DNA of 34,139 nt from Chloroflexota bacterium. Its GTDB lineage: Bacteria; Chloroflexota; Anaerolineae; B4-G1; SLSP01. The position numbers and the translations under genes were made by a program. The notes below the pieces were generated by a model that was not told the origin of the DNA, searched no databases, and worked only from the letters and a program-made list of their open reading frames with translations. The stretch is from contig JAAAOZ010000333.1 in NCBI GenBank assembly GCA_009908585.1, positions 1-34,139 of the forward strand, in the 5' to 3' direction. Below, piece after piece: positions 21,778-22,185 of this stretch. Numbering within the stretch: position 1 is the first letter of the stretch; every line of letters begins with the position of its first letter.

Positions 21778-22185
21778 TTCACACCTCCGTGTGCTATAGC
21801 TGCCTGCACCAGCGCGAGCAGCCTCGCTACAACTGCCGCAGGCGCTTGTAAAATGCACACGAGCGGCAAGGCTGTATAAAGCCGCCGTCCACCCCTGGCG
21901 CTCTTCTAATCGCCAAAGCCAAGGGGCGGACGGGCGGCCATACCGTACTGGGCGCCCTGCGCCGGGGAGCAAAAACCGGCGATGGAGGCCACGGCCCGGC
22001 GTTAAGCCGGAGTCGTGGCCCTCAGCCCATCCTGTGACGCGGGTTTTTGCGGACCGGCAGCAGGGTTGCCTTGCGCCGTGTGCTAAGATGTTGTGACCTG
22101 CGGCGAATATTGGATGGACTCCGCTCTGGGGGGGCGCAGGGGGGGCAAGGCGCGCGGCGCGCCGAAGCCCCTCCCGCATCTTTGT
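21778..22185 (-). ncRNA. Structured leader element, copy B (three-way-junction core 21855-22083 plus conserved 5' and 3' extensions)
   Basis: P1 GCACACG-AGCG-GCAAGGC / GCCTTGC-GC-CGTGTGC; P2 GCCGCCGTCCACCCCTGG / CCAAGGGGCGGACGGGCGGC; P3 base CCCTGCGCCGG..GCAAAAACCGGCG / CGCGGGTTTTTGC..CCGGCAGCAGGG. Confidence 0.5.

Follow-up and report, generated by a model that had tools for sequence, protein, structure and literature searches.

The window, as the whole stretch of DNA analysed here is called (a 34-kb contig of a Chloroflexota MAG, 34,139 nucleotides), holds three copies of an element of 300–400 bases whose DNA folds into a three-armed hairpin, and which is a candidate for a new structural class of Frpo-like single-strand-DNA promoter. 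This assignment is the favoured one but tentative, standing a little short of an even chance, and its main rival is a 5'-UTR RNA. In the mechanism proposed for it, which is slightly less probable, the three-way junction would present a pre-melted extended −10 bubble, with which mobile elements of Chloroflexota would fire anti-restriction and ssDNA-repair operons only while their DNA is single-stranded. That the class is an undescribed one, with an integrated element and a tailed phage among its carriers, is likewise possible and somewhat doubtful. The case is built on the computed fold, its conservation and covariation, an invariant promoter box, the geometry and the orientation rule of the element, the missing sense promoter, and the gene content.

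Fold, copies and distribution of the element

A previous, sequence-only reading of this DNA had correctly seen a triplicated, structured, and orientation-specific element ahead of minus-strand operons. Alignment places the three copies at the cores claimed for them (A, 3095–3349; B, 21855–22083; C, 25544–25869), with a mean column identity of 71%, and all three fold, on either strand, into one and the same three-way junction. The closing stem (P1), the P2 hairpin, and the conserved base of P3 with its variable apex are as had been described. An outer helix, P0, newly recognised here, comprises 6–10 bp, is predicted in 13/13 copies, and encloses an internal loop, the order inward being P0, internal loop, P1, and then the variable arms P2 and P3. 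The parts of the element in the window are the following:

21835–21842 (+): copy B, P0 5' arm GCCGCAGG, pairing with 22097–22104
21843–21854 (+): copy B, internal loop, 5' strand (template side; 12 nt), unconserved between copies
21855–21872 (+): copy B, P1 5' arm GCACACGAGCGGCAAGGC, with 1–2 extra bases relative to the 3' arm
21881–21938 (+): copy B, P2 hairpin, with a conserved pyrimidine-rich loop of 17–19 nt, GGCG-nTCnnCTAATCnnCAAA-GCC
21955–22065 (+): copy B, P3, with the conserved base CCCTGC..GCAAAAACCGGCG / CGCGGGTTTTTGC..GCAGGG and a variable apex
22068–22083 (+): copy B, P1 3' arm GCCTTGCGCCGTGTGC, identical in 12/13 copies
22084–22096 (+): copy B, internal loop, 3' strand (non-template side) TAAGATGTTGTGA
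22097–22104 (+): copy B, P0 3' arm CCTGCGGC
25523–25890 (+): copy C, full element, with P0 at 25523–25530/25883–25890 and P1 at 25545–25562/25854–25869
25870–25875 (+): copy C, putative −10 box TATGAT, in the loop 25870–25882
3073–3371 (+): copy A, full element, with P0 CCCCGCC (3073–3079)/GGCGGGG (3365–3371) and P1 at 3095–3112/3334–3349
3350–3355 (+): copy A, putative −10 box TAAACT, in the loop 3350–3364

Ten further full copies in six related loci bring the total to 13, which fall into at least four sequence types. These additional copies were obtained solely via the contigs of RadC and DdrB homologues; exact-pattern scans with two motifs through genome, viral, and metagenome collections added only one locus (L004), and nothing was found by a scan for RadC relatives in viral contigs, by blastn against plasmids and phages, or by an exact-protein look-up of the long RadC ORF. 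All 13 copies are uniformly oriented relative to co-oriented islands of at least 18 kb, and all precede an operon, in plasmid-like, phage-like, and chromosomal contexts. The contigs stem from hypersaline mats and stromatolites, and integrated copies of the mobile elements are represented by contig_1774 and contig_2753 of ERZ1757541. Each island holds three to five copies, with the ribosome-binding site of the operon 50–85 nt away.

The fold energy of copy B lies far below that of shuffled controls (z = −6.0 to −7.5). Folded as DNA, its + strand reaches −79.8 kcal/mol (z = −5.95), the complementary strand being equally good, and the + strand of copy C reaches −154.2 kcal/mol (z = −6.8). The large stable fold of the Frpo/ssi ssDNA promoters is thus found here too, with the same architecture in 13/13 copies; Frpo2 of the F plasmid, folded in the same analysis, gave z = −6.4, its −35/−10 boxes not being placed confidently.

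Compensatory changes appear in P0 and P2. As had been proposed, P2 differs among copies yet remains paired, through changes of CG to UA and of GC to AU; mid-stem, the sequence differs from copy to copy but is self-complementary within each. In P0, 3/9 pairs are altered on both sides between sequence types, and the covarying types are GCCGCAGG/CCTGCGGC, CCCCGCC/GGCGGGG, and CCCCCGCCGC/GCGGCGGGGG; its cells are paired in 95.7% of cases, compared to ≤46% in slid registers. The copies of locus L002 have diverged, exchanging the A5/T5 tract of P3 for other complementary sequence, and keep P0, the loop, P1, and two arms despite the change in most of their stem sequence. P2 is swapped for unrelated hairpins in L008 (7683–8003) and L002 (8042–8350), and P2-type hairpins recur elsewhere too, namely within P3 apexes in other copies and next to copy A, where one of ~130 nt at 3385–3510 is missing in L001.

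Copies B and C are bordered by a direct repeat, CCGTGTGCTAT(A/G), which is degenerate in L001 and L006 and absent from copy A and its relatives. This repeat of 11–13 bp, with a degenerate extension to ~27 bp, would suit a set of nested palindromic repeats inserted as selfish or neutral DNA, in which hairpin modules enter each other and a pre-existing small hairpin by the ribosome-binding site, spreading via recombination or gene conversion between homologous promoter modules, and the junction is functionless. The modularity of P2 and P3, the varying number and place of P2-type hairpins (P3 apexes; 3385–3510), and a presence/absence polymorphism at two orthologous sites agree with it. However, the uniform orientation and position of the 13 copies across three kinds of context, the architecture retained in L002, and the lack of the repeat around A-type copies make such an origin quite improbable; the ends bear no terminal inverted repeats, and no transposase or recombinase is associated.

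The candidate promoter box and the proposed mechanism

An extended −10 box on the + strand of the window, TGTGnTAnnnT, is invariant in 13/13 copies, the middle positions of the hexamer varying among TGA, AGA, AAC, TCA, TCC, and GAA. This pattern of conservation is that of a sigma-70-type extended −10 box. In copy B, TGTG (22079–22082) is the end of the P1 3' arm and corresponds to the −17..−14 'TRTG / extended −10' motif, TAAGAT (22084–22089) is the −10 hexamer, and the start site would be the A at 22096. A point against a promoter is that no −35 hexamer was found 16–18 bp from the box, where the junction sequence is CAGGGT or AGGGGA; TTGCCT and TTGCGC occur merely 12 and 7 nt from it.

The box has a precise place in the fold. 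Its TG sits in the final base pairs of P1, and TAnnnT opens the internal loop, with T−12 opposite A or G (a G·T wobble) in most copies and opposite T in copy B. P0 starts at +1 to +3, and the proposed +1 is A or G in every type; in this model, the internal loop would span about −12 to +1/+3. The loop is symmetric, with, in all copies, 12–16 nt on the non-template side and 12–17 nt on the template side, and its conservation is one-sided, the non-template strand being conserved and the template strand variable. The 5' arm of P1 carries bulges and is likewise variable, in its inner half. The arm bearing the box is the 3' one and, in the folded + strand, would serve as non-template; in duplex DNA, the box is directed away from the operons.

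According to the single-strand promoter model, the promoter would form only when the + strand, which is the template of the downstream operons, is single-stranded, as the DNA presumably is at some stage in vivo. The strand would fold back on itself, with P2 and P3 as scaffolds joining the distant arms of P1, which would give ~16 bp of duplex upstream of the box, including TGTG as the 'extended −10 / −16' motif. TAnnnT would already be unpaired where the 12–16-nt loop begins, the loop being sized and placed like the transcription bubble of an open complex, and P0 would form the downstream duplex, its 5' arm in copy B being the template strand just downstream of the start site. We infer that polymerase makes use of the box and where it starts: the host sigma-A RNA polymerase would bind the pre-melted structure, initiate at the purine 7 nt past the hexamer, and then copy the 5' arm leftwards, exiting the hairpin. 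The resulting mRNA would carry a leader of 50–70 nt (a 5' UTR of ~65 nt in copy B), comprising a hairpin, Px, and the ribosome-binding site, ahead of RadC-ArdC-SWIM, the small-gene/DdrB operon, or DUF4326. As the box is on the fold-back arm, the element would be silent or misdirected as duplex, and complementary-strand synthesis would turn the box away from the genes, silencing the operons. The outcome would be a short burst of anti-restriction and ssDNA-handling proteins upon entry or during single-strand replication.

Neighbouring genes and transcription in either direction

The flanks of the three copies contain the following features:

21583–21777 (−): 64-aa gene of no family, first downstream of copy B
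21780–21843 (+): proximal linker of copy B, with the ribosome-binding-site hairpin CACAC-CTCC-GTGTG (21780–21793)
21787–21798 (+): degenerate direct repeat CCGTGTGCTATA in the linker of copy B
21802–21843 (+): hairpin Px in the linker of copy B, its 3' arm being the P0 5' arm
22105–22190 (+): conserved module distal to copy B, with an A/T-rich stretch, two G7-8 runs (22128–22147), a G+C-rich hairpin, and CATCTTTG
22426–22458: terminator-like site with a T-run, upstream of copy B
22957–25463 (−): operon downstream of copy C, encoding RadC (24585–25463), an ArdC-N-domain protein (23676–24545), and a SWIM protein (22957–23751)
26035–26056 and 26090–26115 (−): two intrinsic-terminator-like sites with T-runs, upstream of copy C
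2648–3022 (−): DUF4326 gene downstream of copy A, with the same arrangement in L007

Domain matches bear out the RadC-ArdC(N)-SWIM operon proposed downstream of copy C and the DUF4326 gene proposed downstream of copy A (E = 1.9e-16); the accompanying SLOG claim found no Pfam match. Minus-strand ORFs continue past the 64-aa gene to a DdrB-like gene (18600–19535). Altogether, the islands encode ArdC, RadC, a DdrB-like ssDNA-binding protein, DUF4326, methyltransferases, and nucleases.

Each copy had been described as directly following the terminators of the previous unit. Terminator-like sites do lie upstream, although 100–340 nt further off, and the G+C-rich hairpins adjoining copies B and C belong to the conserved distal module and are not terminators of the preceding unit. 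The sites at 26035–26115 probably terminate the restriction-modification operon that lies upstream and insulate the one that encodes RadC. For copies B and C, no conserved sense-strand −35/−10 promoter was found in the stretch from the terminator-like sites to the start codons, the lone sense-strand match there being CTAACA-16-TATCCT (8/12) in the P3 apex of copy C only. Canonical promoters are present elsewhere in the window (TTGACA-17-TACAAT at 4121, and TTGGAT-17-TATAAT near 1.8 and 33.9 kb), and copy A has a weak candidate of the extended −10 type at 4054, lying on the minus strand and ~700 nt upstream. The headline claim of the sequence-only reading, a transcribed leader or riboswitch-like RNA, is left neither confirmed nor refuted, no sense-direction promoter having been found for copies B and C and the strand comparisons being mixed; the candidate favoured by the invariant box at the stem-loop junction and by the missing upstream sense promoter is the other one that it had offered, an Frpo/ssi-type single-strand promoter.

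An RNA could still arise if the minus strand were transcribed from a farther-upstream or a non-canonical promoter, for the first of which the site at 4054 would be available in copy A. The junction would then fold in the mRNA as a cis-acting 5'-UTR element controlling translation, stability, or processing: the P1 3' arm CCUCGUGUGC could, for example, pair with either the P1 5' arm or the ribosome-binding region GCACACGGAGG, or P0-loop-P1 could be a processing site of the RNase III type, like those found between the early genes of phage T7. As sense RNA, copy B folds equally well (z = −7.3), and most copies retain the sequences of loops and junction. The direct repeat offers an alternative pairing that would mask the Shine-Dalgarno sequence, although this pairing is automatic given the repeat, and copy A has none. 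Stems are nearly all Watson-Crick (~1 wobble per ~100 pairs, in helices common to both strands), which favours folded DNA; a loose count of wobbles gives 42 vs 24, and a strict count of unique events (isolated non-Watson-Crick pairs flanked by shared pairs) gives 8 for the sense strand vs 4 for the + strand, which speaks slightly for RNA, as does a recurrent C·A mismatch of P2 on the + strand, which becomes G·U in RNA. On the other hand, the two G·T wobbles of P0 are both on the + strand. The minimum free energy is lower for the + strand in 8/13 copies (6/8 in the first set), and UUCG- or GNRA-type loops are too few for strand counting. A 5'-UTR element, which is unlikely but carries real weight, would leave unexplained that the best-conserved sequence is a promoter box on the opposite strand and that the internal loop is conserved on one strand only. 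It also lacks a sense promoter from the terminator-like sites to P0 in copies B and C and a matching Rfam family, and the exchange of P2 and P3 for unrelated hairpins is unlike a ligand-binding core. If the element does act as RNA, it would define a new family of RNA motifs, associated with islands of RadC, ArdC, DdrB, and DUF4326.

Transcription in the opposite direction has to be weighed because of two empty orthologous sites, L003 and L004, the latter at an orthologue of the gene downstream of copy B. Both keep the −10 box, TAnnnT included, and the distal module, have neither junction nor fold, and hold a palindrome, CACAC-N4-GTGTG, directly upstream of the box. Such sites tell against the single-strand promoter model, implying either that the operons are expressed otherwise or that the box has a role in duplex DNA. 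In the second case, it could be an ordinary duplex promoter firing outward on the + strand, with the junction as upstream regulatory or insulating DNA or as a passenger. Its product would be a divergent mRNA in L001 and otherwise an RNA of ~90–100 nt, transcribed from the G-runs, G+C hairpin, and CATCTTTG of the distal module. Besides the persistence of box and module in the empty sites, three observations point to this reading: the palindrome resembles an operator, the + strand of the module closes with a G+C hairpin and then a short T-run, and L001 holds, beyond the module in the same direction, an 86-aa gene that has a ribosome-binding site. Nevertheless, it is improbable, as in the window, L007, and L008 the transcript would have no gene to express and would collide head-on with the 3' end and the terminators of the operon before it. 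Moreover, A-type copies share box, P1, and P0 but have a wholly different downstream sequence, and hence no conserved RNA product, and the pairing of P0, the bubble geometry, and the strict association with operon starts would be unexplained. The distal module occurs with or without the junction, and might act on the + strand as a roadblock, made of a G-quadruplex or a hairpin, or might terminate a short + strand RNA.

Several other candidates were examined and dropped. The element has no counterpart in Rfam, in line with the earlier reading, and the window gave no gathering-score match; at E up to 10, the three copies gave chance microRNA and sRNA hairpin matches only, far below thresholds, and the radC (RF01754) and STAXI (RF01728) covariance models did not match them even at E = 10. 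A MITE or IS-derived element was rejected for its lack of terminal inverted repeats and a direct repeat at B/C-type copies only, a retron ncRNA because no reverse-transcriptase domain was present in the scanned ORFs or in the gene tables of the related loci, and a hammerhead or small ribozyme because the junction strands TGTATAAA, CATACCGTACTGGGCG, and TT are, by eye, unlike the hammerhead core; no tRNA- or tmRNA-like element was found. Neither orientation has the GG/GC spacing of a sigma-54 promoter, and a sense promoter for a phage single-subunit polymerase was discarded because the 15 nt upstream of TAGCACACGG are wholly different in the A-type and B/C-type copies of the window. An intrinsic terminator was rejected since the A5/T5 tract flanking P3 is missing from the L002 copies, and a small + strand ORF from the module ATGGACTCC since it has no ribosome-binding site and its frame is not kept, being shifted by variation in G-run length.

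Comparison with known single-strand promoters and structured elements

The closest known systems are the ssDNA promoters Frpo, ssi, and 'ssp', which occupy leading regions in F, ColIb-P9, and pESBL (Masai & Arai 1997, as summarised in PMC9849209; PMC11541004; PMC12672017; doi 10.64898/2026.01.09.698686). The leading regions of F and pESBL are split into operons with a folded ssDNA promoter ahead of each, and some of these promoters have no sequence similarity to Frpo (PMC9849209, PMC12672017, PMC11541004, doi 10.64898/2026.01.09.698686). Like them, the element has a large, stable, and orientation-specific fold of the template strand, occurs in several copies that each head an operon of co-oriented anti-restriction and ssDNA-binding genes, and holds its promoter box on a fold-back arm. 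Unlike them, it is a three-way junction instead of a single long hairpin, has an extended −10 box without a −35 box, and places the −10 hexamer in a complete pre-formed bubble of 12–16 nt, closed by a downstream helix. Its host phylum, Chloroflexota, is also different, as are its carriers, one of them phage-like, in which no conjugation machinery was identified. No sequence similarity to Frpo/ssi was detected with copy B against PLSDB (blastn, word 11; 72,556 plasmids, among them plasmid F, NC_002483).

Gene content and co-orientation fit a conjugative leading region, yet two points on the carriers tell against the single-strand promoter model. Neither a relaxase nor an oriT nor type IV secretion genes could be recognised among the sequences scanned; what the backbone does contain is limited to FtsK/SpoIIIE-like ATPases, a ParM-like protein, and unknowns, and transfer of the FtsK type could involve double-stranded DNA. 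Similarly, the carrier L001 resembles a tailed phage (terminase, amidase, DnaB), a kind that enters the cell as duplex DNA; if the single-strand promoter model is true, phage-like carriers would have an unrecognised single-stranded stage or hairpin extrusion. The hairpin promoters of phage N4 show that such elements can work on injected phage DNA after extrusion from the supercoiled duplex.

Both the N4 early promoters and ssoA-type origins are folded ssDNA read orientation-specifically by RNA polymerase. The N4 promoters are hairpins of 5–7 bp read by the virion polymerase, not by a sigma-70-type holoenzyme, and sso elements, of which a replicon has one, yield primers instead of mRNAs. An equivalent role, as a single-strand initiation (priming) site for complementary-strand synthesis rather than a promoter for the downstream genes, would compare the element with the sso of rolling-circle plasmids or the G4-type ssi signals. 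Its stable, orientation-specific ssDNA fold would suit this role, and the RNA-polymerase-dependent sso elements, such as the pMV158-type ssoA, are themselves folded promoters. Frpo also primes DNA synthesis (PMC9849209; doi 10.64898/2026.01.09.698686). A role in priming alone is, however, highly improbable, as the recurrence of the element within each island, every copy standing at an operon a short distance from a ribosome-binding site, suits expression better. Priming and promoter roles are not mutually exclusive.

The radC RNA motif and STAXI, which occur close to radC, ssb, and antirestriction genes, are candidates for structured RNA or ssDNA, and the authors of STAXI posed the same question of RNA versus single-stranded DNA (PMC2864571). 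Both share with the element the kinds of neighbouring genes (radC, antirestriction, ssDNA-binding). However, STAXI is a tandem pseudoknot, and the taxa of both are Proteobacteria / Enterobacterales. The geometry of the element is that of the artificial bubble and fork-junction promoter templates of RNA polymerase biochemistry, which are duplex to about −12 with TG, have an unpaired non-template −10 region, and are again duplex from about +2. Those templates are made in the laboratory from two strands, whereas here a single strand would supply both sides via the three-way junction.

Single-strand-DNA promoters account for the expression of anti-defence genes by incoming plasmids that are not yet double-stranded. 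To our knowledge, no more than a few proteobacterial plasmids have yielded demonstrated examples, and resemblance to Frpo is the usual means of finding them. If the model is true, transcription dependent on the ssDNA state would not be peculiar to enterobacterial conjugative plasmids, the element would be a self-silencing 'genetic timer' part, and further members could be sought with a structural rule, namely a TG-bearing stem, a bubble led by TAnnnT, and a downstream helix. In the logic shared with the known systems, every operon has its own element, the anti-restriction genes are co-oriented, and terminators provide insulation; the recurrence of this logic with an unrelated architecture in a distant phylum would broaden the principle.

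Copies of the element and their genomic neighborhoods

In the window, a 34,139-bp contig from a Chloroflexota MAG, the triplicated element of the sequence-only reading is borne out: its copies A, B and C each fold as a three-way junction, composed of a closing stem (P1) and two variable arms (P2 and P3), with energies 6–7.5 standard deviations under those of shuffled controls, whether folded as DNA or RNA and on either strand. Their cores, and what lies downstream of each, are as follows:

3095-3349: copy A; downstream, minus strand, DUF4326
21855-22083: copy B; downstream, minus strand, a series of small genes, the last encoding a DdrB-like protein
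25544-25869: copy C; downstream, minus strand, genes for RadC, a protein with an ArdC N-terminal domain and a SWIM protein

These operons are those originally described, except that the "SLOG" assigned together with DUF4326 was not confirmed; the RadC ORF is 100% identical to a 249-aa NCBI "RadC" protein. That reading could assign the element to no ncRNA family, and Rfam holds none matching any copy, whether the cutoff is the gathering score or relaxed to E = 10; this covers the radC (RF01754) and STAXI (RF01728) motifs, found near similar genes (PMC2864571). Whichever mechanism applies, the copies represent a family of structured elements, in mobile elements of Chloroflexota, that has not been described before.

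Scanning public collections for sequence patterns yielded almost nothing. It was on contigs encoding RadC and DdrB homologues that a further ten full copies turned up, along with a partial one (locus L006). Two of the full copies are on L001, a phage-like contig of 70 kb that encodes terminase, amidase and DnaB, two strongly diverged ones on L002, one on L005, two close to the end of a 354-kb contig (L007), and three close to the end of a 497-kb contig (L008). Both of these large contigs contain homologues of the window backbone gene 5236-6507, and so hold the same kind of element as the window. Orientation relative to the following operon is identical in all 13 copies, and the islands around them are co-oriented and span at least 18 kb.

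The P0–loop–P1 core and its promoter-like box

Folding of the 13 copies places outside P1, in every one, an internal loop and then a further helix, P0, of 6–10 bp, whose sequence differs between types while complementarity is kept (GCCGCAGG/CCTGCGGC, CCCCGCC/GGCGGGG and CCCCCGCCGC/GCGGCGGGGG). In the P0–P1 alignment, 95.7% of cells are paired, versus at most 46% in slid registers, and three of nine P0 pairs are altered on both sides. The loop is nearly symmetric, its 5' side having 12–17 nt and its 3' side 12–16 nt. Apex length in P3 differs among copies, P2 has been swapped for unrelated hairpins in L008 (7683-8003) and L002 (8042-8350), and P3 of L002 carries another complementary sequence in place of an A5/T5 tract. 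Since the arms vary so freely and the junction architecture survives their replacement, the conserved core is P0–loop–P1, not the arms.

Just distal to copy A lies an extra hairpin of ~130 nt (3385-3510), with a conserved loop type as in P2, which is precisely missing from the orthologous place in L001 (12990-13010). Hairpin modules of the P2 type seem to come and go without the junction.

The best-conserved block consists of the P1 3' arm and the first loop bases on the + strand, GCCTTGCGCCGTGTGC-TAnnnT. This arm is identical in 12 of the 13 copies, its 5' partner being variable and bulged, and TGTGnTAnnnT is invariant in all 13, apart from the hexamer's three central positions, which vary freely (TGA, AGA, AAC, TCA, TCC, GAA). 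Judged by sequence, the conserved positions are those of a putative sigma-70-type -10 box (T-12, A-11, T-7) with a TG "extended -10" and a TRTG "-16" motif, the latter common in Gram-positive promoters. The TG is located in the last base pairs of P1 and the hexamer opens the internal loop, where T-12 lies opposite A or G (a G.T wobble) in most copies and opposite T in copy B; the loop strand opposite the box is not conserved. P0 starts between +1 and +3, and in every type a purine (A or G) occupies the position 7 nt past the hexamer. The whole geometry suits an open complex.

Further repeats and signals in the window

Several other features stand out in the window:

1780-1960 and 33880-34060, minus strand: a pair of almost identical ~150–180-nt blocks, upstream of low-G+C genes 1018-1587 and 32795-33781, each with two copies of palindrome GGTATTACTGAGTAATACC, a likely operator, then canonical promoter TTGGAT-17-TATAAT
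3925 and 22287: conserved intergenic motif GATGCGATTGGAGAG(G/A)G(A/G)TTT.GTTTTACGAGGC (also L003 5020, L007 7192, L008 5867, L009 1791), found on the sense-direction upstream side of several elements as well as at loci lacking them
4121-4381: 70-aa HTH_17 (excisionase/MerR-like) gene behind strong promoter TTGACA-17-TACAAT, followed at 4390-4760 by an A+T-rich non-coding stretch ahead of + strand backbone genes; a possible regulatory, origin or attachment region
10582-10760: repeats GAAACCGGAAATTTTCCGGTTTC, inverted and direct, of iteron-like type, and a (CTA)n/(TAG)n stretch, in or beside winged-helix ORF 10235-11086 and followed by ParM-like partition gene 12002-12976; may be a replication origin
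13685-14830 and 29745-31199: paralogous genes with staphylococcal-nuclease and lamin-tail domains, at whose corresponding place L008 and L011 have lamin-tail and PLD-nuclease genes
22128-22147 and 25914-25933, + strand: two runs of 7–8 G separated by CGCA, in the module distal to B/C-type copies, also in L001, L003-L005, L007 and L008 with run lengths differing between loci; could form a G-quadruplex

A proposed promoter on folded single-stranded DNA and its alternatives

On duplex DNA, the box is directed away from the operons. An ordinary outward-facing duplex promoter making a short + strand RNA would have this direction, although we regard it as improbable. The + strand is the template of the downstream operons; lying on the 3' arm of that strand once folded, the box would be the non-template strand of a promoter with the 5' arm as template, and its inverted orientation on duplex DNA would follow from being carried on the fold-back arm. 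In the case of copies B and C, inspection of the sense strand revealed no conserved -35/-10 pair between the start codons and the terminator-like sites with T-runs that end the preceding units:

22426-22458
26035-26056
26090-26115

The only sense-strand match there is CTAACA-16-TATCCT (8/12), confined to copy C, where it falls in the P3 apex, and copy A has a weak minus-strand extended -10 about 700 nt upstream. Canonical promoters do exist elsewhere in the contig (at 4121 before the helix-turn-helix gene, and near 1.8 and 33.9 kb with palindromic operators). As duplex DNA, then, the three operons seem to lack a promoter.

The best-supported mechanism, at a little short of an even chance, is a single-stranded-DNA promoter functionally analogous to Frpo/ssi/ssp. 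Transcription would exit the hairpin leftwards, producing an mRNA with a 50–70-nt leader that holds hairpin Px and the ribosome-binding site, while P2 and P3 would serve as scaffolds uniting the distant P1 arms, which would explain why they are allowed to vary. A pure priming site is highly improbable. Nearly all pairs in the stems are Watson-Crick, as is usual for DNA hairpins more than for structured RNAs rich in G+C; this is only suggestive. Wobble pairs counted as unique events slightly favor the sense strand (8 versus 4 on the other), against a single-stranded-DNA promoter, with the two in P0 falling on the + strand. A 5'-UTR RNA, acting as a processing site or through an alternative pairing in which the ribosome-binding site is concealed, is unlikely, though the main contender.

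Also counting against a single-stranded-DNA promoter, a properly spaced -35 box is lacking, and no relaxase, oriT or type IV secretion genes were found on a backbone of FtsK/SpoIIIE-like ATPases, a ParM-like protein, iteron-like repeats and proteins without assigned family; moreover, L001 is phage-like. Likewise, the junction is precisely missing at two orthologous sites, before RadC in L003 and before the copy-B gene orthologue in L004, where operons must be expressed some other way, or not at all. Both sites read CCTCC-GTGTGCTATGATGTTGTGACC and keep the box and the distal module with no fold (z = -0.03); in the window, this place is taken by an insertion with the direct repeat CCGTGTGCTAT(A/G) on either side. 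Being degenerate on the gene-proximal side and missing from A-type copies, this repeat looks more like a relic of recombination than like a target duplication made by a transposon. That the inserted junctions are selfish nested palindromes is quite improbable.

A perfect 5-bp palindrome, CACAC-CTCC-GTGTG, with the ribosome-binding site of the first gene in its loop, occurs at 21780-21793 and 25466-25479, at L003 5133 and at L004 1204, abutting the -10 box directly in the empty sites; it could be a DNA operator or a translation-masking RNA hairpin.

The gene content of the islands fits an entry or single-stranded-DNA stage, as the ArdC N-terminal domain binds single-stranded DNA (PMC6222260) and the islands also encode a DdrB-like protein, RadC, DUF4326, methyltransferases and nucleases. 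Of the roles first proposed, the Frpo/ssi-type one is retained as a mechanism, on account of the box, its geometry and the missing sense promoter, and not as membership of the Frpo family, to which no homology was found. The leading regions of F and pESBL are split into operons with one such fold before each, some without sequence similarity to Frpo, and these folds are shut off once the complementary strand is made (PMC9849209, PMC12672017, PMC11541004, doi 10.64898/2026.01.09.698686).
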